A stretch of 52,421 nt of DNA from the IMG/VR virus record IMGVR_UViG_3300025891_000058, positions 1 to 52,421 of that record. One strand, given 5' to 3'. A program made the translations under genes and the position numbers. Shown here in pieces: positions 5,294 through 38,998 of the stretch (positions are counted from its first letter, which is position 1; each line of letters starts with the position of its first letter). A model generated the notes under the pieces. That model searched no databases. It saw only the letters and a list, made by a program, of their open reading frames with translations, and had not been told where the DNA came from. The DNA comes from a virus (taxonomy: Duplodnaviria; Caudoviricetes).

Positions 5294-6070
5294 TTATTTA
5301 TTTTTAATAAATTTACATTGTGATTCATGGTATTCGTAAAGAGACTTCATGTCTGTGCCATTCATAAATGAATAGCAATTTTCATTTTCAGACCATTCTA
5401 AATTACATTCACGATAAAATATTTTACCGCTTTTCTTTTTAAAATAATACTTTACACATCTAATCGAAAATGTCAATCTTAAATTCCATATATCGGAAGA
5501 AAAATTACCGATTGTTACGTCTTCAATTTTTACTTTAAATCCATTTTGACCATTTAAATTATGATATAATAAAGATAGCATATTTTGTTGAGACGTTTTT
5601 AGCCAATCTATTTCTGATGTTATTTCTTTTGCTTTATTGGTAAATTTAGAATTTAAACTGTAGCTACTAGTCACCATTTCTTTTTCTGTAAATTCAATTT
5701 CTTCACCGTTTTTTAAAATAAAAGTAAATCCTTTATCTATTTCAATCGTGTCGGTGTATCTATTTTGCCCGGTTACAAAAATATTACCAGATAATAAATC
5801 ATTTTGGTATTTTTCGGCAGATTCATTACTTTTTTTTTCTGCTTTAATTCTTTCGTTTACTAATTGTCTTTTACTTTCAAAATTTTCAAGCTCAAAGATA
5901 TTTTTCTGGTTATCGGGATGTATGAACGACAATGAATTTTCAAGTGTTATTTTCAATTCCTGAAAAATAGGATTTAATTTATCCTTATTTATATCATAAA
6001 ACCAAAGAGGGATTCTTAAATTTAATCCCTCATATTGATCGTCGTTAAACTTTTGTAGGTTAAGTATCAT
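5294..6070 (-). CDS. Hypothetical protein
   Basis: 258-aa very AT-rich ORF; no motif recognised. Confidence 0.75.
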   Translation of the reverse strand: MILNLQKFNDDQYEGLNLRIPLWFYDINKDKLNPIFQELKITLENSLSFIHPDNQKNIFELENFESKRQLVNERIKAEKKSNESAEKYQNDLLSGNIFVTGQNRYTDTIEIDKGFTFILKNGEEIEFTEKEMVTSSYSLNSKFTNKAKEITSEIDWLKTSQQNMLSLLYHNLNGQNGFKVKIEDVTIGNFSSDIWNLRLTFSIRCVKYYFKKKSGKIFYRECNLEWSENENCYSFMNGTDMKSLYEYHESQCKFIKNK

Positions 6071-6071
6071 T

Positions 6072-6284
6072 TTATATTATTTTATAAGTTCCTGAATTTA
6101 ATCCCGATTGAAATTGTTTAACTGAACACCAAGCCATTTTAAGATTATTGATTCCGTTACCTCCCTTAAAATTAAAACCTACATACCAACTAATTCTTGT
6201 TTCTGTCACCTTCGCAATTTCAAATATATTGCTTGTTGGGGTAAAGTTTACTTTTGTTCCTATTGTTATTTCAGTTGCTTTCAT
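6072..6284 (-). CDS. Hypothetical protein
   Basis: 70-aa ORF, first gene after the promoter and operator at 6330-6381. Confidence 0.65.
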   Translation of the reverse strand: MKATEITIGTKVNFTPTSNIFEIAKVTETRISWYVGFNFKGGNGINNLKMAWCSVKQFQSGLNSGTYKII

Positions 6285-6363
6285 TATGTTCTATTTTTAG
6301 TGATTCAGCTTCCTTGCTGTTTCATGATGTAAATATACAACGTAAATTAACCGATATAACCAA

Positions 6364-6381
6364 AGCTGTTGCATAACATGT
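6364..6381. promoter_or_regulatory. Putative phage operator, copy 1 (AGCTGTT-gcat-AACATGT)
   Basis: One of six TGTT-N4-AACA dyads upstream of promoters. Confidence 0.7.
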
Positions 6382-25411: not shown

Positions 25412-25651
25412 CTAAATCAATCCTTCGTTTTTCTGAAAATCAGGATACAAAAGTTTGATTTCTTCAATTGTTTTGCGAGGATTAGAATCGGGAATTAACC
25501 CTTCAATCTCTTGTAGGTCTACATCAGTTAAAACATTTTCAGGAATGAGAAATTTACCATCTCCAAGCGGTTGTGGATCAATCGCGCTGTACTCTCCATG
25601 TTGTCCCCTGATCCTGTTTGCTGTTGTAGTGCTTATAATTATATGCTTCAT
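25412..25651 (-). CDS. Hypothetical protein, possible fibre assembly partner
   Basis: 79-aa ORF coupled to 25648-26472. Confidence 0.6.
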   Translation of the reverse strand: MKHIIISTTTANRIRGQHGEYSAIDPQPLGDGKFLIPENVLTDVDLQEIEGLIPDSNPRKTIEEIKLLYPDFQKNEGLI

Positions 25652-26472
25652 GCTATTACTCCTTTCCCGTTAGAATCCATGTAAGATTCAATTGCGTCAG
25701 TTGTAGCGTCAGATTGAGCCTTTGTCATCCCTTTTCCTGCAAACGCAATAGAAATTTGCCGGTTATTAAATAATGTTGGCGTTCCGCTTGTAGATCGGCA
25801 AAGAATAAACCATGTCAGATTAACAACCGCAGCTGAAGTAATTAACGACTCATTAAGTGCTATTTTATTACGATAATCAATATACTTACTACTTTCCAGT
25901 CGACTTACGATATGAGTACCCAACGACGAAGATACAGCAGTAGTGCCTCCTGGTCCCGTCTGACATCGAGATTGATTTGAGCCTGAGGAATTCATCCCAA
26001 TTGTTGCACCTGTAACCCCATCACTCACCCCTATATCGTTCGATGGTATAGGGGAGTCTGTGCGCGAATAAACCCCAAAAGAGCAATGATTCTGTTTGTA
26101 ATTACTGCCAATCGAGGCATTGTAGTTGCTATTTATATAACTACTTACCCCATTTCCAATGAATCCCTCCAAGGCGGTAAAGGCAGGTGAATTAACGGCA
26201 GTTGCATCCTGCGATCTTTTGGCAAGGTTCCTAAGTGAACTTTCAGATGTTTCATTAGCCAACACATAAAAGGTATCAAAAAAATCAGATAAATTAGTAA
26301 TGCCCAATCCTGTTTTGAGATCTTTAACCAACTTATCTATTTTCTTTTTCTGTGAAGTCGAAATTGGCGTTACCAGTCCCGAAACATACGCTTTCGTTTC
26401 AGGTTGATAGTTCAACAATGGCCCTACGCGACCCACTCCCTTTATCCCCGGTATTCCTAAAATTCCTGGCAT
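25648..26472 (-). CDS. Putative virion fibre / lectin-like (concanavalin-like) protein
   Basis: S/T/G-rich beta character, FIGNGVSSYINSNY...SFGVYSRT; end of tail module. Confidence 0.55.
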   Translation of the reverse strand: MPGILGIPGIKGVGRVGPLLNYQPETKAYVSGLVTPISTSQKKKIDKLVKDLKTGLGITNLSDFFDTFYVLANETSESSLRNLAKRSQDATAVNSPAFTALEGFIGNGVSSYINSNYNASIGSNYKQNHCSFGVYSRTDSPIPSNDIGVSDGVTGATIGMNSSGSNQSRCQTGPGGTTAVSSSLGTHIVSRLESSKYIDYRNKIALNESLITSAAVVNLTWFILCRSTSGTPTLFNNRQISIAFAGKGMTKAQSDATTDAIESYMDSNGKGVIA

Positions 26473-26682: not shown

Positions 26683-29046
26683 CTAAGCCAAACTTTTAAC
26701 TTTTGCAAAATATGCGTCTGCCGCCTGATCATATCCCGATTTTTCAGGGTGTACGCTATCCCAATGCGTTAACTGTGTTTCGGCACTTCTCGCAGAAATA
26801 GGAAGTAATTTATAAGGCATACCATAAACTCTGTCGATCCATTGCCCTGCATTACATGCGTAAACATTCGGATATAATGCATTACCATTAAACTCACTTT
26901 CGATTAATTTCCACAGATCAATCATATTCTTTCTGAACGTCACAAAACTTGTATTTCCGAAAAAGTGAACGCTCCATCCTGTTGCATCACATCCGCTTGC
27001 AGGATAACCAATGATTATTTTTGCAGTCGGATAATCAACTATAAACTGATCAATGAAGGTTTTAATTCCAGTAATCACAACGCTGGCAGCAGTTCCATTT
27101 TTAAGGTTGTTAATCCCTATCTGATAGATCATGTAATCGACACGATCAACAGCCCCTGCCTGTCCAATGATATTTGTCTGAACATATGATTTAAAATTGT
27201 TTTTTGTTCCATCCCAAAATGGGGAATGAGAATCTAAAAACCAAGTTGTGTCATATCCCGTCATCCCTGCGTGATAATAAGGAGGGTAGTTTTTTTTGTG
27301 TCCTAACATTAAAGGTGTAAATCCAGTATTTGCAGTGCATAAATCTGTGAATTCCTTTACTATTTCCGGACCTTCGTGTTCATAATAGGGTACTCCAGGA
27401 CTAATCATCGTAGCGTCGTCGATTGTTGAGTCACCAACGAAAAGAAATTGAAGTGTTCCTGTTCCTGCCGTCACACTAACCACATTAACAGTAATTATTT
27501 TTGATTCGGTAATTACATTTCCTTTGTCGTAAACATTCAATGTGACACTTTTTGCTCCGGTCGTTGCAAAATTCATTCTGATAGCACGGTTCATTGGCCT
27601 CACTTCACTTCCCGCGATTACCGCTTCAACTCTGTATCCTGAGTGTTCATAATCCAAAATAATATTATCCAACCAGAGATTAAATTCCTTCCCTGTACTT
27701 GCTTTAATCACATTAGGAACAGAAGATAAAAAGGTAGTTGCGATACCTTGCGTTGCGGTTGATATTGGCGCGTTCGGATAAGATACGGAACAGTTTATGA
27801 ATGTAGTAATAGCAACTCCCCTATAATCTGCCCACCCATTGACTGCGATACCTTTGTTTTTAAGATCAAAAACAAGGTCTGATTCGTAAATCGAATTATT
27901 AAGAGGATCGGATGCTAAATAAGTTACATCTGATTGTGTTAGTGATTTATTCCATTTGCGAAACATCTTAACATCAAGAGCTGTGTGTAATGCATTTCCG
28001 GTATAAGAGCCTACAAGTATTTTATCAGAGGCGGTAAGCGACATATAATTTGCCGTCCCGTTTAACGCAATTTTTTGCACTCCAACATACAGATCGTAAG
28101 ATGCTAAATTCCTGACTATTGTAATTAATACTTCTTTACCTGCAAAGGCGGTAATTAAGTGAGCGTACATAGCGCCAACGTTCTCTTTTGTTACCGTCAA
28201 CTTGCCATTATATAGGCTCATATATAGCGAATTTACTCCGCATGAGAACAGCGATTGATTTGCAGTTACATTAGTTGGCAGCTTAACAAGCATCTGAAAT
28301 GTTTCGTTCGCATCCCCTGATTTAACAGCATTTAAGCAATTAACCGTTAAAATAGACGTTGTGGTATTTGTTGATACTACGCTTTCGTTATCCGCCTTAA
28401 GGTAAATATCGCCAGCAATTACTTTTTTAACGTTATTTAAAGTGGCTCCCGAATCTGCATTTACATTTACAACAACATTTCCCATTGCATCATAAACCCT
28501 GAAATAATATAAATCAATGGCTGAAAATAATCCAGAACCAGTATAGCTCCCAATAAATAGCGTTGTATCTGCTAACGCGACAGGACTCGTTATCGGATTT
28601 GAATATTTCCATACATCATCAATATACGCCTCTACTGCGGTTGCGAGTTTTTTTATTGTGAGCTTTATTTTCTGTCCGGCATATGATGAAACATTAAAAC
28701 TCCCGATAGTTGCACCTATGTTCGAATAGTAAATAAACAGTGATCCAGTATTTATTGTCACCATTATTTTATTCCCATACGAAAATAACACTTGATTTGG
28801 TGCTGTGTCAGTAGGCATTTTAAAGACCATTTCATAACTACCTAAATCGCTTCCGTTAATAGGCATTGCATTTGGGAATGAAACAAATGAATCTGATCCA
28901 TTCAGCTTTAATACTGGATCTATTATTCTTAATGTTTCATTATATAATCCCAATGAGTTTTCGTTAAATGCCTGTTCAACCTCTAACCCCGTAGACCCTA
29001 CTATTCCTAAACTTGGGTCATCAGCTGCTATTTTTAAAATGTTCAT
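26683..29046 (-). CDS. Tail fibre / receptor-binding protein with two LamG-like domains and a C-terminal SGNH/GDSL esterase
   Basis: Repeated LFIGSYTG/ILVGSYTG units; FVGDST, QIGINN, DSVHP..SGY catalytic blocks; -7 box at 29072-29079. Confidence 0.8.
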   Translation of the reverse strand: MNILKIAADDPSLGIVGSTGLEVEQAFNENSLGLYNETLRIIDPVLKLNGSDSFVSFPNAMPINGSDLGSYEMVFKMPTDTAPNQVLFSYGNKIMVTINTGSLFIYYSNIGATIGSFNVSSYAGQKIKLTIKKLATAVEAYIDDVWKYSNPITSPVALADTTLFIGSYTGSGLFSAIDLYYFRVYDAMGNVVVNVNADSGATLNNVKKVIAGDIYLKADNESVVSTNTTTSILTVNCLNAVKSGDANETFQMLVKLPTNVTANQSLFSCGVNSLYMSLYNGKLTVTKENVGAMYAHLITAFAGKEVLITIVRNLASYDLYVGVQKIALNGTANYMSLTASDKILVGSYTGNALHTALDVKMFRKWNKSLTQSDVTYLASDPLNNSIYESDLVFDLKNKGIAVNGWADYRGVAITTFINCSVSYPNAPISTATQGIATTFLSSVPNVIKASTGKEFNLWLDNIILDYEHSGYRVEAVIAGSEVRPMNRAIRMNFATTGAKSVTLNVYDKGNVITESKIITVNVVSVTAGTGTLQFLFVGDSTIDDATMISPGVPYYEHEGPEIVKEFTDLCTANTGFTPLMLGHKKNYPPYYHAGMTGYDTTWFLDSHSPFWDGTKNNFKSYVQTNIIGQAGAVDRVDYMIYQIGINNLKNGTAASVVITGIKTFIDQFIVDYPTAKIIIGYPASGCDATGWSVHFFGNTSFVTFRKNMIDLWKLIESEFNGNALYPNVYACNAGQWIDRVYGMPYKLLPISARSAETQLTHWDSVHPEKSGYDQAADAYFAKVKSLA

Positions 29047-29098: not shown

Positions 29099-31777
29099 TT
29101 AAACTATTTTTAGTGCTGCATTCGCACCGGATCCGTCACGGTATATCGTTCCAGAACCCAATCCAGTAGGAGATGTAGGCATTGAGGACATCACACGCAA
29201 TATCGAATCAATATAAATCGTATTGAGTTGTCCGTTAAACCCCATCATTGATTCGCCTTTGCCGTTGAAAATCATAAGCGTTCTGAATCTGGTAGTACCG
29301 CCTTGATATCCAATTCGATTAATGCATACATATCCACCGTCGTCCGTATCTTCAGTTGTTTCCCATATATCGTTACCGTCAATCGATATTCCTCCCCTAA
29401 AAACAGTGTTATAATGAGATATTACAGGATGGGTAAATGATACTCCGGCAGTTGCAGCCGTGAACAATAAATTAACCCCTGAGGATGTTAGTATTATATT
29501 ATCAGCTGCAAAAATACCCGCAAATAATGCAACGTAATCTATGGCCGTTTGTGTAAGCCCAAGATAATTGTATGTAATAAATTCAATCGTTGGATTTACC
29601 CATATTTCGGCCTCTCCTGAATTTCCCGTTAACTCTATTTGATCAACTTGTGCAACTGCAACTGTTTTTGGATTTACTAAACTTGTAGTTCCAAAACTAC
29701 TGCCAATTAATGTGCTACCTGAAAAATCAACTGCCGGGTCATTTGCAGTAAAAGTAAATTCAGTAGATGATATTTTTGTAAGCGTCACCGCTCCATATCC
29801 TGCCGAATTTGCAGTTATAAAATCAGTTATTGTAATATCTGTGCTTGTATTCCAAAATATACCGTGCGTATATCCGTTGCACTCAACCATCGAACTTCCA
29901 GTTGTTATAAAGATTGTCACTTTGTCAACTCGTGCGGATGCTACGACATTCGCCTGAACATTAGTAACTATTCCGTTTAAATTACCTGGACCAGATGAAA
30001 CGCCGTCAAGTTTATCAACTCTTAGGTTTTGAATAGTCGCGTATTCTGCAAGTAACACCTCTGTTGCTATACTATTATACTGAGCGTCGAAGGGTTTCCA
30101 ATATCGTGCATTTGTAGGCAAAATACCAGTAAATGACTCCGAAGGTGCATCTATTCTGGAAATATAATAAAGGACTCCTAAGTCCGGACTATCTGCAGGA
30201 ATATCATACTTTACTATGTCAATTCTTGAAAGATTACCAAAGTATTGTTTTGCTGGGTCATAAATACCCTGGTACATTGGAACCGTTTTGATCTTCTTTT
30301 GTTGGTTAGCCTTCATTGCTGCTAACCATGCCAATTCTTCGGATGACTTATCTACATTAACAATTTCATGCTGATTGCTTATTATCGCCTTATTTAGCTG
30401 CTCTGCATAAGTATAAGGTATTTTGTCAGATATTAATAGCTTTATCCTATTTGGATCAACTAATGGCCATTCAATGCCAGATATACGTATCAATGAATTA
30501 ATTCCAAGTCCTGCATCGATAACCGTTACCCGGTCGCCGCAATTAACCGTAATAGAGTTATCCTTTATATATTTCGGGTCAATATCAGCAGTGTAAACAA
30601 CCTGAGGTACTGAGTTTTCATCTAATGCCTCTTGGGTTTTATTTTGTAATATCAACTCGTTATCATCAATATATGTCTGAGGCTGGCTAATTCCTGTCAG
30701 TGTATAGCTATCGCCGATCATTGGAATTATAGGAAAACCACCGTTATATTTTGGCAGTGTGGCACCATTTTCACGAGTTACCGGATTAAAGTAAATCCTA
30801 TGGTTTGCATTATCGTACTTCCAAATTTCAAACCCCGGTTCTATCCCGCCTAAATCACCGTCTTTAAACACTATTAGGTGTGTTTGACCATCTATAATAT
30901 AGTCATTAATATCGAAATTAAGAGTCGTATCTTCAACCCAGCTTGTTTGATTTTTAAATGTTTCATCTGTATTGAATTCGATATTTACGTCTGTCAAATA
31001 TCCTGTACGCTGTGGGAAAATAGTCTCATCTGTAAAATCACCTTCGATAACTCCGTAAATAGAAACGTTCTTTTCAAGATACAATCCATCAAAAACAAGC
31101 TGCTTTGTTCCACCCCTGTATGATTCCTGAATATTGGTAGTACCGCCAAATCCGTACATACGGGTAATTATATTCTTATCTTGTACCTGTTCACGCCTTA
31201 ATTTATAAAGTCCGTTATTTTGCCCGTATTCGAACGTAATGGCAGTATTAACTCCTATTGACTTTTTAAGATTTAAAACTTTCGCAGTAAAATCATATTC
31301 AAGACCGAATACCTGCGCTACCTGGGATAATGCACCAATACAGTAAGCACTTGAAAAATTGATAGTTTTATAAACTGTTACATCAATATCTCCTAATGTC
31401 CAACCCGGATCAATCTCATTAATATTTGCAATTATGGAGGTAGCGAATGAAAGAGCGTTACCATTCAATGGGAAATTAACCAACCCATCAGAACTCCTAA
31501 ACTTTTTCTTTCCCCAGCTTATTTCTGCTGATTCAAATGTGATATTATAACTGATTGTCTTATCGTTAATCCGCTCGTAGGTTGGCATTCTATTGATATA
31601 GAAATTTAAACTATTAATAGTAATGTAGTCGCCAATTTGCACCCCAATATCATTTTCAGCAAAAAACTCAGTAGTTATTGAATTGCCAGACATTAATTTT
31701 TTGGAATACGTAGTCTTCTCGTCTATCGGGACTGTTGCAACTATTACTGAGGCTCTATATATCGTTAACTCTGTCAT
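29099..31777 (-). CDS. Tail spike / baseplate hub (Tal-like) protein
   Basis: Prophage tail-protein pattern FEYGQNNGL...IITRMYGFGGTTNI...IFPQRTG; position after Dit. Confidence 0.8.
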   Translation of the reverse strand: MTELTIYRASVIVATVPIDEKTTYSKKLMSGNSITTEFFAENDIGVQIGDYITINSLNFYINRMPTYERINDKTISYNITFESAEISWGKKKFRSSDGLVNFPLNGNALSFATSIIANINEIDPGWTLGDIDVTVYKTINFSSAYCIGALSQVAQVFGLEYDFTAKVLNLKKSIGVNTAITFEYGQNNGLYKLRREQVQDKNIITRMYGFGGTTNIQESYRGGTKQLVFDGLYLEKNVSIYGVIEGDFTDETIFPQRTGYLTDVNIEFNTDETFKNQTSWVEDTTLNFDINDYIIDGQTHLIVFKDGDLGGIEPGFEIWKYDNANHRIYFNPVTRENGATLPKYNGGFPIIPMIGDSYTLTGISQPQTYIDDNELILQNKTQEALDENSVPQVVYTADIDPKYIKDNSITVNCGDRVTVIDAGLGINSLIRISGIEWPLVDPNRIKLLISDKIPYTYAEQLNKAIISNQHEIVNVDKSSEELAWLAAMKANQQKKIKTVPMYQGIYDPAKQYFGNLSRIDIVKYDIPADSPDLGVLYYISRIDAPSESFTGILPTNARYWKPFDAQYNSIATEVLLAEYATIQNLRVDKLDGVSSGPGNLNGIVTNVQANVVASARVDKVTIFITTGSSMVECNGYTHGIFWNTSTDITITDFITANSAGYGAVTLTKISSTEFTFTANDPAVDFSGSTLIGSSFGTTSLVNPKTVAVAQVDQIELTGNSGEAEIWVNPTIEFITYNYLGLTQTAIDYVALFAGIFAADNIILTSSGVNLLFTAATAGVSFTHPVISHYNTVFRGGISIDGNDIWETTEDTDDGGYVCINRIGYQGGTTRFRTLMIFNGKGESMMGFNGQLNTIYIDSILRVMSSMPTSPTGLGSGTIYRDGSGANAALKIV

Positions 31778-32298
31778 TATACTATTATTAAGTCAATATT
31801 AAACTTTGCAGCAATACCATTATTGTAAACTACAATATCTCCTACCTTAAACCCTTCAGTAGCAAAGCAACTAATCAAATCGTGATCTTTTAGTTTTATG
31901 GCTCGTAGTCCTTCGGTTGCAAAAAGCAGGGTTAAATTCGCAATTTTTACATTCATATCAGTTAGTGACGCCCCAATAATAAACCCATCTAATGAAAGAG
32001 TTTTATTTTTCCTTCCTGTTATCTGATATCCTTCACTGCCATATTTAGTAAAAAACTGATCCTTTAGTTCTGGCAGGTTATCAATAGCTTTTGATTCTGA
32101 AATATAAAGTCCAAAATTCAACATATCATTACCATCAATAAGGTATTCACTTATTCCTATTCCTGATAGTTCATTTCTGCTTATTGATATGTTTACAGGC
32201 AGATTAACGACAGCCTTATTGTGCAGCACAACCTTAAACTTTACCGCCCATTCAGGAACAGTAAATGTTTTAGGATATGTATTGTAAATTTCAGACAT
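31777..32298 (-). CDS. Distal tail (Dit)-like protein, C-terminal half
   Basis: EYLIDGNDMLNFGLYI parallels YLLNNIDLTTYGIL of 34543-35331; immediately precedes tail spike. Confidence 0.65.
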   Translation of the reverse strand: MSEIYNTYPKTFTVPEWAVKFKVVLHNKAVVNLPVNISISRNELSGIGISEYLIDGNDMLNFGLYISESKAIDNLPELKDQFFTKYGSEGYQITGRKNKTLSLDGFIIGASLTDMNVKIANLTLLFATEGLRAIKLKDHDLISCFATEGFKVGDIVVYNNGIAAKFNIDLIIV

Positions 32299-32312
32299 TT
32301 TAATTAAAGTGT

Positions 32313-33734
32313 TTATTTTGTTATTGCCTTATTATTTCTTGTTAAAGGTACATTATTTCTGTTTACTATCGTACCATGACCGGAATAAACTACAGTACAT
32401 GTTCCATTTGCATTGGCATACGCTTGTTTATTTGCTGACACGTCTGCAATTGCCAGATTATCTGCTGCAATTTGACTCGCAGTAGAATTGTATGTATTCG
32501 CGCTAACATTGTAAGCCACTGTCGATCCATAATAACCGACCTGGCAATCATTCCTGGTTGCTGTTCCTGACTGAATAGTATTGTAATAAGTTGTTGTACC
32601 GCTTTGATATTCATAAGCTCCTAAATCAATCGTACCAGTCCTGGCATTACCTAAATAATCGGTTGTTAATCCAGTATTGTAACCTACATTAATAGCAGGC
32701 GAAGTGGATTGTAATGCGTAATTATGATTCGCTTCATCAACGAATAGTGGGTTTGTATTGTCGTAATTGTTCGTTATTGTAAGTCCTGTCGCATTTGTCC
32801 ATACCGCATTACCACCATAACAAAGGTTTTTAGTAATTAAAATGTTTGTGTAAGTGTAGCTGACCTGTGAAACCGCTATTGCAGAACTATATTGATCTTT
32901 AAAGACATTATTGGCGATTACTGCATTGACCATTGTGCCGTAAAGGACTAAATGACCTTGTACGGTTTGGTTATAGTTCCCATTTTCGCACGTGTTATTT
33001 ATGAAGTAAAAGTTGCTTGTAGTGTAACCGCCTCCAGAATAAACCTGACAGCTAAACCCTCTTTGCATATTATAGAAAACATTATTCTGAATGTAAACGT
33101 AGTTTCCACCCTCGCAGTATATGCCGTGGTCGTGCCCCATCCAATAAACAGACGATGGTGTACATCCGCCTTCACTTGGTCCAAGCCGACCGATATCGTG
33201 GAATAAGTTTCTTTCAATGGTCAAATAGCTCGATTGATTAATATAAATAGCATCTAATCCATATGTAGTTTCGGTGCAAACTTTCCCATTTCGATCAAAT
33301 TCGCAATCTATGACATTTATATGATTTGCACCGTTTGTTATCGGAACACACATTAATTTAGTCTCAAAGAATTTAAAACCTTCAATATTAATATAGCTAA
33401 CCCCATAACAGAAAATTCCGTAATCGGTCGTTAGGTTTCCATCTATAATTGCAAGTCCTTTATTCTTTGCCTTGTATGTAATCGGACTACCTGAAGTTCC
33501 ACTATTAGCAGCGGTTAAGTAGGCAAACTGTCCAGACGTAGTTGTATAGGTACCATTTAACACAATCACTGAATCGCCTGGAACTGCAATAGATTGACCA
33601 CCTGCAATAGTTAATTTCGCCAAAAGCTCCGTAAGTCCTGAATTGCCGTTATTCCCAGTTGTCGAAACATAGATATTTTTTGAATATAGCAACGAACTTG
33701 CAAATAAAAATAAGATTAGAAGTAATTTTTTCAT
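32313..33734 (-). CDS. Signal-peptide-bearing right-handed beta-helix (polysaccharide lyase-like) protein with C-terminal DUF5977-like domain
   Basis: MKKLLLILFLFASSLLYS; IYVSTTGNNGNSG; NNVF/NNT repeats; NYALQSTSPAINVG...DLGAYE; TRNDC...QAYANANGTC. Confidence 0.8.
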   Translation of the reverse strand: MKKLLLILFLFASSLLYSKNIYVSTTGNNGNSGLTELLAKLTIAGGQSIAVPGDSVIVLNGTYTTTSGQFAYLTAANSGTSGSPITYKAKNKGLAIIDGNLTTDYGIFCYGVSYINIEGFKFFETKLMCVPITNGANHINVIDCEFDRNGKVCTETTYGLDAIYINQSSYLTIERNLFHDIGRLGPSEGGCTPSSVYWMGHDHGIYCEGGNYVYIQNNVFYNMQRGFSCQVYSGGGYTTSNFYFINNTCENGNYNQTVQGHLVLYGTMVNAVIANNVFKDQYSSAIAVSQVSYTYTNILITKNLCYGGNAVWTNATGLTITNNYDNTNPLFVDEANHNYALQSTSPAINVGYNTGLTTDYLGNARTGTIDLGAYEYQSGTTTYYNTIQSGTATRNDCQVGYYGSTVAYNVSANTYNSTASQIAADNLAIADVSANKQAYANANGTCTVVYSGHGTIVNRNNVPLTRNNKAITK

Positions 33735-33737
33735 AAA

Positions 33738-34532
33738 TTAAGGAATTAAAGTTACCCTTAAATAACTCAATGAATATACTGTGACTGTTCCGGATGTTGT
33801 CTTTAAGAATTGAACTGTTAAAGGTTGAGACGTGGTCCCAGTATAGATTATTCCCTTAATATAGATTGATCCGTATTGTCCTGATGTAGTAAGCCACCCC
33901 GAATAAGCCGTATTAAAAGTGTCTATTGTGACTGATTTAGTTGACGCGTTAGTTAGGCTTCCAAACATCGCACCGCTCATTATTGCGCCTACCCCGCTAT
34001 TATAACTCATTCCTATTCCTATTCCCGTAACATCTGCCGAAACTCCTATGCTCAAAACGACTTCAAATTCATAATTTACACCCGAATTTAACGTTTTTGA
34101 CAACCCGGTTATGTTGACTAATATTTGGCCTGTTGTATTTGCTGAACTTGTCATTATTGAATATAACGAAGATCCGCTCGCCCCGAATGCGATTGTTCCA
34201 TTTGCCTGTACTACTGGCACCTGCCCCGTAGTTCCACCAGATAAAGCTATAACTGCACTATCTCCCCTAAACACTGCTATTTTACCTGCTGTTCCTGAAA
34301 TATAATTAGTTAATGGCAGCACGGTAGTTTTACTTAAAAACTTCGATTGTGCTTGGGCACTATTGAACAGTTCGACTGGAGTAGTAAATTGTGGCGGTGT
34401 ACTCCCTGCTGCCTTAATTAGTATCTCATCTGTGGCTCCTACAGTATTTCGTTTAGTCATTCCAGAACTAAACTTTTGAGCCTGTAATGAAGCAGTAAAA
34501 AACAATAGTGCGATAAAAAGAATTGCTTTCAT
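33738..34532 (-). CDS. Signal-peptide-bearing fibre-like protein
   Basis: MKAILFIALLFFTASLQA-Q; GGTTGQVPVVQANG fibre-like linker; S/T/G-rich C-terminal beta domain. Confidence 0.75.
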   Translation of the reverse strand: MKAILFIALLFFTASLQAQKFSSGMTKRNTVGATDEILIKAAGSTPPQFTTPVELFNSAQAQSKFLSKTTVLPLTNYISGTAGKIAVFRGDSAVIALSGGTTGQVPVVQANGTIAFGASGSSLYSIMTSSANTTGQILVNITGLSKTLNSGVNYEFEVVLSIGVSADVTGIGIGMSYNSGVGAIMSGAMFGSLTNASTKSVTIDTFNTAYSGWLTTSGQYGSIYIKGIIYTGTTSQPLTVQFLKTTSGTVTVYSLSYLRVTLIP

Positions 34533-34542
34533 AATTGAATTA

Positions 34543-35331
34543 TTAAAATGTGATTAATTGACCTGAATCTGATGTTATCGGCGTACCTGAATCTGATGTT
34601 AATGTACCTAAATAACCAAACGACGTTAATATTTCTGTTGCTTTTAATTGCCCTTCGCCATTTAGATATCCTGTCATAAATGCCGGATCAAATCCGTCTG
34701 AATGTTCCATACCTGAAATAAATGTACCGTAAGTATCGTAAAAGTAAACAGAATACGCCGTACTATCTAATGAGTTTAACGTTAATTTATCAATATTTGT
34801 AAAATCAGTGAACGTCTTTGATCTTATATCTGTCGCTCTTACTTTTACTAATCCTGTCCAGTTGTCAATGGCTCCTACTTCCATTGACGTGGCAGTAACT
34901 ACCGAAATATCACCTAATGTCAATGGTGACGGTAATGTGTAAACAGTTTCCCGGAATAATAATGTAAAAGTACATCCGCTGTTTGTCATCTCAGGTGTTA
35001 TTGATTTCACGTAACCTGAAAAGCTACCATATGGAGTTGAGAATACAACTAAATCAGAAAACAGATTAACTGCTGCATAAAAAATATTCAACTTGATTAC
35101 AACCTGATCCGGAGTTCCTAAAATAATACCAGCAAATGAAAGGTCGCGCCCCTCAAAGAATATCTCGTCTGCATCGACATATGGCTGTATTGATTCAGCC
35201 CACTCATGGAAACATACGCCTGATCGCTTTGGAAGGTTGAACACTCCAGACATTGAAATATTACTTCCAGATATTTGCCCTGGAAGTATTCCGTATGTAG
35301 TCAAATCGATATTATTTAATAAATAGCTCAT
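34543..35331 (-). CDS. Distal tail (Dit)-like protein, N-terminal half with apparently foreign C terminus
   Basis: Directly after tape measure; YLLNNIDLTTYG...LPKR...EGRDL...LLFRE. Confidence 0.7.
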   Translation of the reverse strand: MSYLLNNIDLTTYGILPGQISGSNISMSGVFNLPKRSGVCFHEWAESIQPYVDADEIFFEGRDLSFAGIILGTPDQVVIKLNIFYAAVNLFSDLVVFSTPYGSFSGYVKSITPEMTNSGCTFTLLFRETVYTLPSPLTLGDISVVTATSMEVGAIDNWTGLVKVRATDIRSKTFTDFTNIDKLTLNSLDSTAYSVYFYDTYGTFISGMEHSDGFDPAFMTGYLNGEGQLKATEILTSFGYLGTLTSDSGTPITSDSGQLITF

Positions 35332-35332
35332 A

Positions 35333-38300
35333 TTAAATAGTTGCGTGATAAGTTACTTTTGTATTCCCGTTTATGGCCTTCAATTCAATGACTGCATTTT
35401 TAAGCTCTGACACTGTATCTGCCGTGTTCTTTTCGATATTGATTAGATGATCAACACCTAATTGCGAAATACTGCGAACGGCTGTTGTATCATCGGCCTG
35501 TCGTCTCATTAACCCGACAAATTCGCCCGGCGTTTCTTCGGTTATTTGACGTAAAATTGAACTTCCTGTTAATGCAGGGTTTGAAATACTAGCAGAATCA
35601 AAGATATTAAACCCAGCGTCGGCCCCGGCTTGTTTTGCGTCTGCCATTCCTTTGTTAAACTGATTAATCAATTCAGGAGACTCGTCGTAAAACTTTTGGA
35701 AATCATCTAACCATGTTTGGTCCCCAGTGACTGCATAACTGGCTACCATATTATCTTCTAATGTCTTAAATGCGCCCTCGAAGGCTTTATTAAATATCAT
35801 ATTACTCATGATATTTTCAAGTACTTTATTCACCTCTCCTTTAAATGCCATCGCTGCATCGGTCCCGTCAACGAAAGCCCCTACTAAAGCATCACGCAAT
35901 CCATTACCTAAAGACCCGGTTAATTCAGACACAACGCTTTTTAATTGTTCTGTTGCTTTATCTGCCGCGTCTTTCCAGTCGATTAAATTTTGCAGTGTCT
36001 GTTTTGTCGCTTCGGTTACTTTATTATTGGCGACTAATGTTTTAGCTAAATCAGCGTTAAACTCTCCATTTGCTTTGATCAGGTCTGGATATGTTTCCAA
36101 AAGAGGCGCAACGATATCTTTTTTCTTTTTTGCAAATAGTCCAGTAAGCGCTCCAACTACGCCTCCTACAGCCGCACCTATTACCGTACCAATCACGGGT
36201 ACAATAGAGCCAATTCCGGCGCCCAATGCTACGCCCGCGCCAATTCCACCTAAAACATTCCCTCCTGAAATAACATTCTTTTTTCCGACAATAGCCTCCG
36301 ACGAAAAGAATTTTTTTGATTCCTCCTGATATTTCTTTTGAGCATCATTGTAAGCTAATGTTGCATCATTTAATGAGCCTTCGTAGTCCTTTAAAAATAC
36401 GCTTCCGTGAATGTCTGAATTAATCCGCAACTGGTCATTTAAAAGCAGATTGTATTCCTGTTGTTGTGATATAATGTTAGCGTAATATTCATCCATTACG
36501 CGTTTATTTTCCGATACTTGGCCCGCTACTATTCCAATCAATTGAGAGGCGCCGGATATGGCTGCATTAATTGCATTATCCTTCGTCATTCCCTTTGAAG
36601 TGAACGCGCCAGCCTTTACTAAATTCCCAATATCTTCAGCTACCTTGCCAACACCCGATAACATATCTGCCAATCCTGAATTTGAATCACCTATTGACTG
36701 CGATAACTGATTTGCAGCATCTGCAACCTCATAAAAATTACCGGCTAACTGCTTTGCCTTCTCTTTCTCGCTTTCGAGTATTTTATCTATTTTTTTATTG
36801 TTTGTCTCAATGCTTTTCCTTGCATCGTCAATAGTATCTTGTTTCTTGTATTTTGTGGGGTCTTTAGTTTTTACTGTTTGACCGGAATACATATCGATAT
36901 AATCCAATTCAGCCTTACTACTGTATTTTGCCTCGAAAATAGCCAGATCGATAGTTTTTTGCTTCGCTTCGTTTATTTTTTGTAGTGCAACTAATTCAGC
37001 GGCTAAAAGTTTTAGTTTTTCGCCTGTTGCCGTTTTCATTGCTTCGAGGATTTGCTTTTCCTGGTCAACTTCTTTTTTAGTCTTCTCTTCTTTTATCCCA
37101 AGCTGATCTTTCAATCCTTTAATGACGGCCTCTTGGTCTGCAATGGCCTTTAATGGATCTTCGCCTTTTGTCTTATCGAATTGTTTTGTTTGAAGCGAAA
37201 CTAATTCCTTTTCTGCAATAACCAGGTCTCCCCTTAATTTTATACGCTGTTGTTCTGTATTTATATATTCAGGTTTCTGTTTAACTGATTCATTTACTTT
37301 TGCTGTTACATCAAAGGCATTTTTTACAGCATCAACTTGGGCGTTATAGTTGACTAATACGCTTTTAAGCGTACCGATCATATTGTTTTGAATCCATTGG
37401 CCTTTAAATAGCGGAGTTTGGGTTTTCTTCACAAACTCATCCAATTCAGCGTATGCTTTGGCTCTTTCAGTTTTATCAATTGCAAATTTTACATTGTAAA
37501 TCAATGGCTGTATTTGCATCTCAAATTTAGCGGCCTCTTCAGCTCCAAATTTATTTTTTATTTGCTCTTTCGTACCTCCGATATAATCGCTTATCGTAGT
37601 ACTGGTATTTTTACCAATTTCCGTAATGCTCTGATCTCGAATTTTAAGCTGAATATTTTCTCTGATTCCATCATTAACCGCCTGTTGTGCTATTGCTTGG
37701 TCTTTAGTTCCCAGTAGTTCACTTTGTTGCCCAGTTAAGTATGATCCATATTGGCTAATTATTGCATCTTTGGCTTTTTTCCATGCGTCTGTTCCCTCTT
37801 TTGCCAATCCCATAGCAGCAAATAATTCATCTGCCTTATCTGTTTCGTTAGATATTTCAACGTTTGATTTATTAATTGATTTTTCTAAATCTGTTTCGTA
37901 GGTTACTAATTTATAAACAGCATACGATAAAGCCGCCACTGCCATTGCTGCTAACACATACGGATTAGCCAACATTGATTTATTTAATGCCTCGTTAGTT
38001 GCAAGTCTTCGCTCTTCTACTGCCCATAATCGTGCCTCTGACAGTGTTAAAACTCCATTGCTCGACGCTGCTATTGCTGTCGATGCTGCCATTAATGTCT
38101 GCTCACGAGCTACAAGCATAACAGCTAATTTGTAAGCCCCGAATACCGTAATTAATCCGCCAAAAACTTCCCCGACTGTTTTGTAATTTGTAATTAAACT
38201 GGCAATGCCTGAAATGCCTGAATAGATTAATCCCTCGTTTGCTTTACCAATATCATTTAGCATTACCTGCCATTTATCCGTTAAGTTGGATATCTGACCA

Positions 38301-38998
38301 GTCACGGAGGCATTTTGTTTCTCCATTAGGTTGTAAAACCTTCCACCCTCACCTGACATTGACTTAAATGCAGCTTCAACTAAAGGGAAACCAATTTGCC
38401 CGGCGGTAACCATACCCTGAATCTCGTCTTTTGACTTACCCATGTTTTTAGCCAGTTCATCAACTAAAGGAATCCCAGCCATTGCAAAGTCACGCAGTTC
38501 ACGACCCTGTAATTTACCCATCACTGCAACCTGACCATAATTGATAGCCACACGTGAAATAGGAACAGATACGCCCGCCGCAACGTCTCCTAGGGCTTTC
38601 ATCGTCCCCATCACGTTTTCGGTAGCGATACCCATTGCCATTAACTGCTTTATGTTGGTAGCTACATCTGCAAGGGTAAATGGAGTTTTTGCTGCAAAGG
38701 TTACAGCTTCATTCATTAATTTGTCGGCCTTATCTTTACTGCCAAGCATGGTCTCAAAGGCTATTCCAAGCTGCTGAAATTGACCCCTGACATTGATAAC
38801 CTCCATGCCAAACTCTTTCAGCTTTCCGGCGCCAAAATAAACCGCTAATCCTGCACCTAACTTATTCATTGCGGAATCAACCCCAGATACCTGACCCTCA
38901 ACGCCTCGTGCCCATGCCCCGACCTGTTGATTTGATGCCGTTAATGCAGATTGTAATTGGGCGGTATTCAAAGTGGCTGAAAACTGTACGGCGCTCAT
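35333..38998 (-). CDS. Tape measure protein
   Basis: 1221 aa, Ala-rich helical; AFETMLGS...AAKTPF...LGDVAAG...YGQV tape-measure domain. Confidence 0.95.
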   Translation of the reverse strand: MSAVQFSATLNTAQLQSALTASNQQVGAWARGVEGQVSGVDSAMNKLGAGLAVYFGAGKLKEFGMEVINVRGQFQQLGIAFETMLGSKDKADKLMNEAVTFAAKTPFTLADVATNIKQLMAMGIATENVMGTMKALGDVAAGVSVPISRVAINYGQVAVMGKLQGRELRDFAMAGIPLVDELAKNMGKSKDEIQGMVTAGQIGFPLVEAAFKSMSGEGGRFYNLMEKQNASVTGQISNLTDKWQVMLNDIGKANEGLIYSGISGIASLITNYKTVGEVFGGLITVFGAYKLAVMLVAREQTLMAASTAIAASSNGVLTLSEARLWAVEERRLATNEALNKSMLANPYVLAAMAVAALSYAVYKLVTYETDLEKSINKSNVEISNETDKADELFAAMGLAKEGTDAWKKAKDAIISQYGSYLTGQQSELLGTKDQAIAQQAVNDGIRENIQLKIRDQSITEIGKNTSTTISDYIGGTKEQIKNKFGAEEAAKFEMQIQPLIYNVKFAIDKTERAKAYAELDEFVKKTQTPLFKGQWIQNNMIGTLKSVLVNYNAQVDAVKNAFDVTAKVNESVKQKPEYINTEQQRIKLRGDLVIAEKELVSLQTKQFDKTKGEDPLKAIADQEAVIKGLKDQLGIKEEKTKKEVDQEKQILEAMKTATGEKLKLLAAELVALQKINEAKQKTIDLAIFEAKYSSKAELDYIDMYSGQTVKTKDPTKYKKQDTIDDARKSIETNNKKIDKILESEKEKAKQLAGNFYEVADAANQLSQSIGDSNSGLADMLSGVGKVAEDIGNLVKAGAFTSKGMTKDNAINAAISGASQLIGIVAGQVSENKRVMDEYYANIISQQQEYNLLLNDQLRINSDIHGSVFLKDYEGSLNDATLAYNDAQKKYQEESKKFFSSEAIVGKKNVISGGNVLGGIGAGVALGAGIGSIVPVIGTVIGAAVGGVVGALTGLFAKKKKDIVAPLLETYPDLIKANGEFNADLAKTLVANNKVTEATKQTLQNLIDWKDAADKATEQLKSVVSELTGSLGNGLRDALVGAFVDGTDAAMAFKGEVNKVLENIMSNMIFNKAFEGAFKTLEDNMVASYAVTGDQTWLDDFQKFYDESPELINQFNKGMADAKQAGADAGFNIFDSASISNPALTGSSILRQITEETPGEFVGLMRRQADDTTAVRSISQLGVDHLINIEKNTADTVSELKNAVIELKAINGNTKVTYHATI

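Follow-up and report, generated by a model that had tools for sequence, protein, structure and literature searches.

Dit, the core ring protein of siphophage tail tips, is normally one chain. In the virus genome analysed here, a whole IMG/VR record of 52,421 bp with a CheckV completeness of 100% (IMGVR_UViG_3300025891_000058, hereafter the window), sequence comparison indicates that a Dit with two tandem domains is divided between two genes, the open reading frames (ORFs) ORF262 and ORF173. Two further genes, ORF264 and ORF473, lie between them. We propose that the split is heritable and that its two products are rejoined by a portable two-part docking domain, an explanation to which we give a probability of roughly 0.55. 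One part would be a small module near the end of ORF262 (here called mod), the other a peptide at the very start of ORF173. The evidence for docking is computational and comes from two phage types.

ORF262 is built from a first tube-like domain, the ~105-residue mod and a short tail, and ORF173 from a 34-residue peptide, a linker and a second tube-like domain. If the proposal is right, the N-terminal part of mod is an incomplete beta-sandwich. The ORF173 peptide would complete it in trans with two strands, TFTVP and AVKFKVV, and pair with residues 193-198 of ORF262. This would bring the two Dit domains into the arrangement that they have in single-chain relatives. We infer that this docking is physical, by strand complementation, and that both halves are present in the virion.

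Two Dit-like domains in two genes

ORF262 (34543-35331, minus strand, 262 aa) and ORF173 (31777-32298, minus strand, 173 aa) each contain one predicted Dit-like domain. An earlier inspection of the letters alone, which we call the sequence-only reading, had proposed that a Dit-like gene is split here. Its coordinates, frames and peptide strings were all correct, including the ATG at 34710 that encodes Met208 of ORF262. Both frames are intact, and the halves are translatable, as that reading had supposed. ORF173 begins with MSEIYNTYPKTFTVPEWAVKFKVVL; residues 1-207 of ORF262 and the 173 aa of ORF173 together make 380 aa.

We call the two domains Dit-like because of their relatives, not because of Pfam. 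The first domain (dom1, tube- or RIFT-like) covers residues 1-135 of ORF262 (34927-35331, minus strand). It aligns with residues 1-136 of P0001, a single-chain relative, at 47% identity (E = 3e-38) and is present in all 14 related viral loci. The second domain (dom2) covers residues 51-173 of ORF173 and the stop codon (31777-32148, minus strand). In Pfam, Sipho_tail (PF05709) does not match ORF262, and ORF173 reaches 14 bits (E = 0.058) where the gathering cut-off is 24.2. The single-chain relatives P0025 and P0005 likewise stay below the cut-off, with 16.6 and 17.2 bits. Among PHROGs, ORF173 matches phrog_14220 (3.3e-6) and phrog_6305, a 'tail protein' (6.3e-4).

The single-chain relatives (P0001-P0004, P0006 and P0014-P0030) are 270-490 aa long and carry both domains in one chain. 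Their first ~135 aa align to residues 1-133 of ORF262, and the next stretch aligns to residues ~44-173 of ORF173 (46-54% identity, E = 6e-46). A search for longer homologues of ORF173 yields six proteins of 332-490 aa. Five are full-length, all of them single chains; in the sixth, P0005, the N-terminus is cut off, and both domains are present with another domain inserted between them. A search near the length of ORF173 adds more single-chain forms, of 270-295 aa.

Gene order agrees with this picture. In 13 of the 14 related viral loci both Dit domains lie in one ORF (268-538 aa) between the tape measure and Tal genes, which bears out the claim that the window's Dit is divided. The remaining locus has a 301-aa Dit whose second domain was missed by tblastn. 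A Dit homologue sits between tape measure and Tal in all 14 loci, and ORF262 and ORF173 occupy the same place, between the tape measure gene (35333-38998, minus strand, 1221 aa) and the gene for the Tal-like ORF892 (29099-31777, minus strand, 892 aa). Loci with short single-chain forms have a Dit stop that overlaps the Tal start. The stop of ORF173 overlaps the Tal start as well.

Dom2 resembles a repeat of dom1 (hhalign P = 1.5e-3), with secondary-structure elements in the same order. An AlphaFold2 model of the single-chain relative P0014 (mean predicted local distance difference test score, pLDDT, 65.3) shows this order twice. Foldseek matches the model to PDB entries of the phage Mu baseplate (7.6e-4), the SPP1 Dit 2x8k (1.2e-3) and the TP901-1 baseplate 4v96 (1e-2). 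Template-modelling scores (TM-scores) against the baseplate and Dit chains are low (0.25-0.36), and they concern P0014, not the proteins of the window. A Dit profile search of PDB sequences gives no match. From the repeated secondary structure and the baseplate and Dit matches we take the family to be a tandem-domain Dit.

Two other assignments were tried and rejected. BLAST drift suggested that residues 1-45 of ORF173 are a remnant of the last hairpin of dom1; with a hidden Markov model (HMM) of canonical Dits, 642 of 1000 shuffles score at least as high as the real sequence, and hhalign gives P = 0.2. A MAFFT alignment placed residues 136-238 of ORF262 as a diverged dom2, for which hhalign gives P = 0.45 against dom2 and 0.31 against dom1.

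The split is shared by relatives

The same division occurs in other proteins. P0011, P0012 and P0013, which are 69-71% identical to ORF173, have the same start methionine and the same N-terminal peptide, and the N-terminus of ORF173 is as conserved as dom2. P0008 and P0009, which are 66% identical over the queried residues 132-262 of ORF262, consist of dom1 and mod and then stop. Since P0011-P0013 keep the same start and P0008 and P0009 stop after mod, the split appears, from these comparisons, to be inherited and conserved. Within the near clade, at about 66-71% identity, homologues are separate proteins with the same termini, a pattern that the sequence-only reading had itself named as a refutation of its proposal that a foreign fragment entered the gene. 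Of the three outcomes it offered, the tolerated split protein is the right one.

That reading also called for uninterrupted homologues. We find no uninterrupted dom1-mod-dom2 protein in any homologue search. A collection of phage GenBank records contains nothing that matches 31000-36000 as DNA or ORF173 by tblastn; ORF262 has one partial match there, to residues 1-109 at 37% identity in an unannotated record.

Several loci carry additional domains or genes around Dit. P0005 has a domain of ~150 residues in frame between its Dit domains, with a weak match to Lcl_C (E = 0.076); in sequence type it agrees with the extensions found at the C-termini of P0002-P0004. Insertions are therefore tolerated in the interdomain linker. 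Locus L010 (5575-7194) has a 538-aa Dit ORF whose C-terminal extension is 40% identical to the separate ORF274 of the window (25648-26472); thus one phage has this domain as part of Dit and the other has it as a protein of its own. In locus L014 a 301-aa fibre-like gene (5461-6366) lies between Dit and Tal, so that extra genes occur at the Dit-Tal junction here too. The end of its product presumably resembles the C-terminal chaperone domains of tail fibres.

The module and an intact repeat

Mod falls into two parts. The N-terminal part covers residues 136-207 of ORF262 (34711-34926, minus strand). The C-terminal part, perhaps a latch or cap, covers residues 208-238 (34618-34710, minus strand). 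An exhaustive HMMER search with residues 131-262 finds five proteins: P0008, P0032, P0033, P0034 and P0035. In the first four the stretch ...FISG-M-EHSDGFDP...LKATEIL is conserved and the protein ends there; P0009, found in a separate search, ends at the same point. The carriers differ: P0032 has 133 aa, P0033 is a shortened dom1 followed by mod, and P0034 is Tal-like. Residues 208-238 are the best conserved part of the family, with 10 of 23 invariant columns. The sequence-only reading had taken the 55-aa C-terminus of ORF262 for a new, foreign piece, which does not fit a segment that is conserved in, and ends, P0008, P0009, P0032, P0033 and P0034.

The fifth protein, P0035, is made up of five repeats of ~105 residues. 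Its match to ORF262 stops at residue ~208, and past that point each repeat continues with strands that resemble the start of ORF173. With hhalign, residues 149-206 of the ORF262 family fall on columns 7-63 of the 104-column repeat profile (P = 3e-5; 9e-6 for the N-terminal part alone), and residues 10-45 of the ORF173 family on columns 71-100 (P = 3e-4, 47% identity over 30 columns). This profile derives from a single protein with five repeats, and the similarity had been noticed before the comparison was chosen. The 34-aa peptide alone falls on columns 71-87 (P = 3e-3). ORF262 thus covers the first 60% of the repeat and ORF173 the last 30%, and a match to the whole repeat (~100 residues) arises only when the two are taken together. 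The continuation of ORF262 itself, residues 208-238, is not similar to the repeat (hhalign P = 0.88). In a shuffle control, 20 of 1000 shuffles reach the lowest real score and none of 1000 the highest.

The join made by the sequence-only reading therefore appears collinear with one complete repeat of the P0035-type module, and its resemblance to a continuous module holds up with modest statistics. Its placement of the break held in part. The division does fall inside the small module, between ...FISG and ...TFTVPE. The ATG at 34710 does not mark the junction, because the position of Met208 is valine in three of five relatives. Residues 35-50 of ORF173 (32149-32196, minus strand) contain the end of the module-like stretch and the linker into dom2: in a 52-aa comparison the P0035 match reaches residue 45, at column 100, and the remainder aligns with the interdomain linker of single-chain Dits.

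The repeat looks like an unnamed beta-sandwich-like module. Pfam has no family for it, and a PDB sequence search with P0035 gives no match. An Atlas model of low quality aligns residues 136-213 of ORF262 to small complete beta-sandwiches (TM-scores 0.42-0.52).

Behind mod, ORF262 ends in a tail (residues 239-262 and the stop codon, 34543-34617, minus strand). An exact 17-nt repeat, at 34561 and 34585 and thus at 24-nt spacing (34561-34601), duplicates an 8-residue unit. A relative in sequencing run X3 lacks 24 nt at 34561, one unit of this repeat. Similar tails end 293-aa single-chain Dits and the 211-aa Dit-like protein of locus L017.

The peptide on a second carrier

Scans with the mod alignment detect one viral locus, L016, and one metagenome locus, L017. 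The two represent a single phage type, which is unrelated to the phage of the window. In this type the gene order, as seen in L017, is a 211-aa Dit-like protein, a 540-aa beta-helix protein, an 827-aa Tal, the SGNH fibre-type protein P0037 and the 516-aa P0036. The Tal matches phrog_19846 at positions 23-684 and then ends in a mod that is 41% identical to residues 135-237 of ORF262.

The peptide is found on P0036. Its first 34 residues are 73.5% identical (25/34, E = 1e-13) to residues 1-34 of ORF173 (32197-32298, minus strand), and after residue 34, or upstream of the ATG, the two have no similarity. Past the peptide, P0036 matches phrog_19846 at positions 1058-1132 and phrog_26019 at positions 515-602, which are downstream parts of long Tals; BLASTP of P0036 against the Tal of the window gives nothing significant. 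DNA similarity between the window and L017 is confined here to codons 1-34, with many differences at third codon positions. A conserved N-terminal peptide thus heads two otherwise unrelated carriers, as expected of a docking peptide.

Mod and the peptide occur together in both phage types. When the window and 16 loci are scanned in six frames with HMMs, mod is detected in the window, L016 and L017, and of these the window and L017 also contain the peptide; the L016 sequence stops short of the site that the peptide gene occupies in L017. Scans with the peptide alignment find no instance in viral contigs or genome contigs, and the mod alignment finds none in genome contigs. These sequences suggest that the mod-peptide pair is portable. 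The tail modules of the window and of L017 are of siphophage type, and their hosts are probably Bacteroidota.

Over L017 7835-13415 the Tal looks split like the Dit of the window: a core with mod, one SGNH gene (P0037), and then the peptide-headed P0036. The pattern therefore occurs twice: a tail protein that elsewhere is a single chain comes in two parts, with an upstream part that ends in mod, a downstream part that starts with the peptide, and accessory genes between them. In L017 mod closes the Tal core, the fibre-like P0036 opens with the peptide, and one accessory gene separates the two.

A predicted complex of the two halves

A complex model of ORF262 and ORF173 favours binding. Its interface score (ipSAE) is 0.65 (0.67, 0.57 and 0.65 in separate runs), and the best control scores 0.00; the sequence-only reading had suggested modelling the halves as a complex. 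The ipSAE mark that we use is reached by 58 of 80 solved complexes and by 2 of 110 mismatched pairs, counts that hold only roughly here because our own alignments served as input. At least 58% of contacts are common to the runs, and partner pLDDT does not fall below 60. The model is unlikely to reproduce a solved complex from its training, because the PDB has no sequence relative.

Two interfaces are predicted. Residues 20-59 and 100-102 of dom1 would contact residues 107-171 in dom2, and residues 167-208 of ORF262, largely in the N-terminal part of mod, would contact residues 8-37 of ORF173. In the second interface strand 193-198 of ORF262 pairs with strand 18-24 of ORF173, with expected errors of 1.1-1.6 A. 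On the ORF173 side, the region of predicted contact (8-37) and the conserved portable block (1-34) coincide.

Junctions and tests for an insertion

Independent contigs contain the arrangement. A Logan contig of 8012 nt from run X1 spans 31744-35500, and hence both junctions, with 0 differences, and contigs of run X2 carry the same arrangement, also with 0 differences; X1 and X2 may be the source sample. In X3, from a third study, short contigs of ~90-98% identity bridge the ORF262/ORF264 and ORF264/ORF473 borders. Depth is even across the region, at ~64. As far as the contigs show, an assembly chimera, one of the options of the sequence-only reading, is excluded, because independent contigs span both junctions.

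In none of the three runs does a contig join 34710 to 32298. Three other joints were considered as deletions and rejected. Those at 32685-33375 and 32746-32877 have short sides of 21-35 nt, lie in high-depth contigs and show 8-9 differences in ~50 nt; we take them to come from other organisms. The joint at 32187-32268, again with a short side of 21-35 nt, is read as a divergent strain. Over window 31919-32297 such a second strain is present in X1 and X2 at about a quarter of the depth; it is ~89% identical over dom2. Codons 11-37 of its peptide are too divergent to align, and codons 1-10 match again. By hand translation, the loose end of this strain encodes peptide residues 28-37, of which 7 of 10 match the window, 5 of these 7 by a different codon.

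An excisable or spliced element, another of the options, finds no support: neither intron-like RNA nor a deletion joint in the contigs turns up. Rfam gives 0 matches in 31000-36000 at E up to 1, and hence no sign of a group I or II intron. Neither Pfam nor PHROGs reveals an intein/Hint, homing-endonuclease or transposase domain in ORF262, ORF264, ORF473 or ORF173. No direct or inverted repeats bracket 32298/34710 or 32149-34926. GC content at third codon positions (GC3) is 0.29-0.30 in the inserted genes, the same as in Tal and ORF787 (0.30), so there is no compositional break. The lack of flanking repeats and the matched composition give a foreign insertion at the ATG no support. A one-off event of this kind is contradicted by the valine in place of Met208, by the C-terminus that five other proteins share, by the three relatives with the ORF173 start and by the mod and peptide of L017. 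The block does not look like a bounded mobile insertion either, as no repeats bracket it and both internal genes are tail-type.

The surrounding tail genes

Nearly all genes of the window lie on the minus strand. The tail genes follow in the order tape measure, ORF262, ORF264, ORF473, ORF173, the Tal-like ORF892 and ORF787 (26683-29046). The block from ORF262 to ORF173 reads in one direction, with gaps of 3-14 nt between genes; promoter and terminator scans show no excess over shuffles. The tape measure gene, taken from the ORF list, lies directly upstream of ORF262, and its ends match those of the long gene upstream of Dit in related loci. ORF892 matches Pfam Prophage_tail (4.4e-13) and phrog_19846 (5.8e-82).

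ORF473 (32313-33734, minus strand) is a predicted right-handed beta-helix protein, with matches to Pfam Beta_helix (9.9e-9) and DUF5977 (2.9e-21) and to NCBIfam choice_anch_Q (choice-of-anchor Q, 6.6e-11). Its residues 9-376 are 50% identical to the 540-aa tail-module protein of L016 and L017 (E = 1e-109). ORF264 (33738-34532, minus strand) may be fibre-like or receptor-binding-like. It has no Pfam, PHROG or NCBIfam match; over residues 19-56 it shares 51% identity with the start of the 540-aa protein of L017, and its look-alikes in Atlas are viral DUF5907/Mtd_N clusters (score 0.90), which we treat as a lead only. From these similarities we regard ORF473 as a putative depolymerase-like and ORF264 as a putative fibre-like tail-accessory gene. 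Pattern scans of viral contigs with ORF264 and ORF473 return nothing, and we count this as a miss of the method, because L016 holds a 50%-identical relative of ORF473.

Both proteins begin with a signal-peptide-like leader. Residues 1-18 of ORF264 (34478-34532) and of ORF473 (33681-33734) have a lysine-rich start, a hydrophobic run and small residues. The 540-aa relative in L017 lacks the leader, and its similarity to ORF264 and ORF473 begins right after it. These may be exported rather than virion-bound fibre or depolymerase proteins, which, if so, would be unusual for a tail operon. A different N-terminal motif of ~60 residues is common to ORF787 (window 28900-29046) and P0037 (L017 10318-10491), at 43% identity. 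Past this motif their middles differ and their ends are SGNH/GDSL-like. By its sequence, the motif may be another portable attachment element.

Weighing the explanations

Several observations weigh against a mod that is completed by the peptide. The stretch 208-238 is the most conserved in mod, and mod ends P0032-P0034 as a complete unit would. The similarity of the peptide to the repeat is weak (P = 3e-3 to 3e-4), comes from the repeats of one protein and is post hoc; in a six-frame scan, an HMM of the P0035 repeat does not detect ORF173 at E below 10. The complex score is the model's own confidence, and halves of split genes tend to pass such tests. An AlphaFold2 model of ORF262 alone, built from a 6-row alignment, has a mean pLDDT of 34 and does not place residues 208-238. 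The predicted interface is not enriched in invariant residues of mod (8 of 23 invariant, compared with 39 of 127 residues). Portability is seen in two phage types only, the contexts of P0008, P0009, P0011-P0013, P0032 and P0033 being outside the comparison, and conservation between the window and L017 is uneven for the two partners, 73% for the peptide and 41% for mod.

Part of this list can be read in another way. Both halves could be functional and mod complete, with the peptide docking on the surface of mod or on its C-terminal part, on Tal or on another baseplate protein, and with the likeness to P0035 a coincidence. That 208-238 is best conserved and ends five other proteins, that the low-quality Atlas model likens residues 136-213 to complete small sandwiches (TM 0.42-0.52) and that the peptide-to-repeat P-values are weak all speak for such an arrangement. 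We nevertheless judge it unlikely: it is the peptide (P = 3e-3 to 3e-4) and not the C-terminal part of mod (P = 0.88) that resembles the end of the repeat, and collinearly so, the peptide is paired with 193-198 in the complex model, where the expected error is low, and mod and peptide co-occur in both phage types. Alternatively, ORF173 could be a leftover. The genes ORF262-ORF264-ORF473 would have arrived by module exchange from a phage in which a receptor-binding protein (RBP) gene stands between Dit and Tal, an order seen in L016/L017, L014 and L010, and the exchange would have cut off the 5' part of the resident Dit; ORF262 would then be the working Dit, and ORF173 dispensable or decaying. 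ORF262 does close with the tail motif of complete 293-aa Dits, which is missing from ORF173, the 211-aa Dit-like protein of L017 with its similar tail motif is followed by an RBP gene before Tal, and L010 and L014 have extra genes between Dit and Tal. Yet a decaying ORF173 fits poorly with three other metagenome proteins in which its type is intact at 69-71% identity, with the same start and an N-terminus as conserved as dom2. Nor would one expect the divergent co-occurring strain to keep 7 of 10 peptide residues, five by a different codon (hand translation), the same peptide to head the intact 516-aa protein of L017, the complex model to pass, or the ORF173 stop still to overlap the Tal start as in single-chain relatives. 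We consider a leftover quite improbable.

The strict version of the sequence-only reading has a continuous gene for ~380 aa that was recently interrupted by a foreign 2.4-kb fragment, perhaps excised, spliced or bypassed. The join is collinear with an intact module and the linker tolerates insertions, as the in-frame domain of P0005 illustrates. A recent insert is still very hard to reconcile with the lack of an Rfam match, of intein or endonuclease domains and of flanking repeats, with matched GC3, or with the three runs, where no contig joins 34710 to 32298. Moreover, relatives keep the same termini, Met208 is not conserved and the C-terminal part of mod is present in other carriers. A chimera assembled from the halves of two genomes has next to no probability. 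The window is a metagenome-assembled record, and nothing was found in favour of a chimera; against it stand the X1 and X2 contigs with 0 differences, the two internal borders spanned in X3 and the even depth of ~64.

We therefore retain a heritable split Dit rejoined by a docking pair as our explanation. Its origin may lie in an interruption after all. Because similarity to the complete end of the repeat, as far as column 100, survives in the ORF173 lineage alone, the split perhaps began with the interruption of a Dit that bore the module; if so, the event is old and its products have since been conserved and reused. A bolder and decidedly doubtful extension is a self-healing gene-splitting cassette, bounded by mod on one side and the peptide on the other, that would let receptor-binding genes land in essential tail genes. 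The half-domain would lie at the left edge of the block and the complementing strands at the right, and the interrupted protein (Dit here, Tal in L017) would re-form non-covalently. If this were true, phages could add host-range genes inside core structural genes without losing those genes.

Relation to known systems

One close comparison is with the window's own relatives, the single-chain tandem-domain Dits (P0014, P0025 and loci L001-L013). They have the same two domains in the same order and position, with the same overlap with the Tal start, at 45-54% identity. Unlike the window, they lack mod, the peptide and the intervening genes, and their extra domains, C-terminal or in the linker of P0005, are always in frame.

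By function, the nearest systems are evolved Dits with carbohydrate-binding modules and the docking pair of Klebsiella podophages. In evolved Dits the additional module sits inside the C-terminal domain. The evolved Dits of lactococcal and streptococcal siphophages are like the Dit of the window in lying between tape measure and Tal, in having an extra beta-sandwich-type module and in belonging to an adhesion device. They are single polypeptides, whereas in the window the module comes after the first domain and is itself spread over two genes that a further two separate. The second domain of the window is repeat-like of the first, not galectin-type as in evolved Dits. Evolved Dit and Tal proteins are reported to carry carbohydrate-binding modules (PMC7533335). 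Carbohydrate binding by mod is putative.

Strand complementation is familiar from chaperone-usher pili, where donor-strand complementation completes an incomplete beta-sandwich with the N-terminal strand of the next subunit. The pili share the mechanism that we propose for ORF262 and ORF173; there is no homology, the biological system is different and the phage case is a prediction only. Searches of open-access full text brought up no report of a divided Dit, and none of strand complementation in a phage baseplate. In dual-RBP Klebsiella podophages, a short and conserved peptide at the N-terminus of one tail protein is reported to bind a domain specialised for it on another, and the two can be transferred to new carriers (PMC13352976). 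The branching domain and docking peptide of Klebsiella KP32, K11 and KP34 are like the 34-aa peptide of ORF173 and P0036, each carrier of which comes with a mod-bearing partner. The Klebsiella pair joins a second receptor-binding protein to the first, whereas the pair in the window and L017 would join halves of core proteins (Dit, Tal) and looks like two parts of one split fold.

A conserved two-gene Dit means that the tail hub tolerates division. If the docking model holds, mod and the peptide would be a natural compact tether, of ~105 and 34 residues, that phages reuse to join tail proteins. The predicted complex would make it a testable case of protein complementation by strand donation in a virus tail. 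It would also bear on how tail modules are shuffled for host range and on phage engineering with docking peptides (compare PMC13352976).

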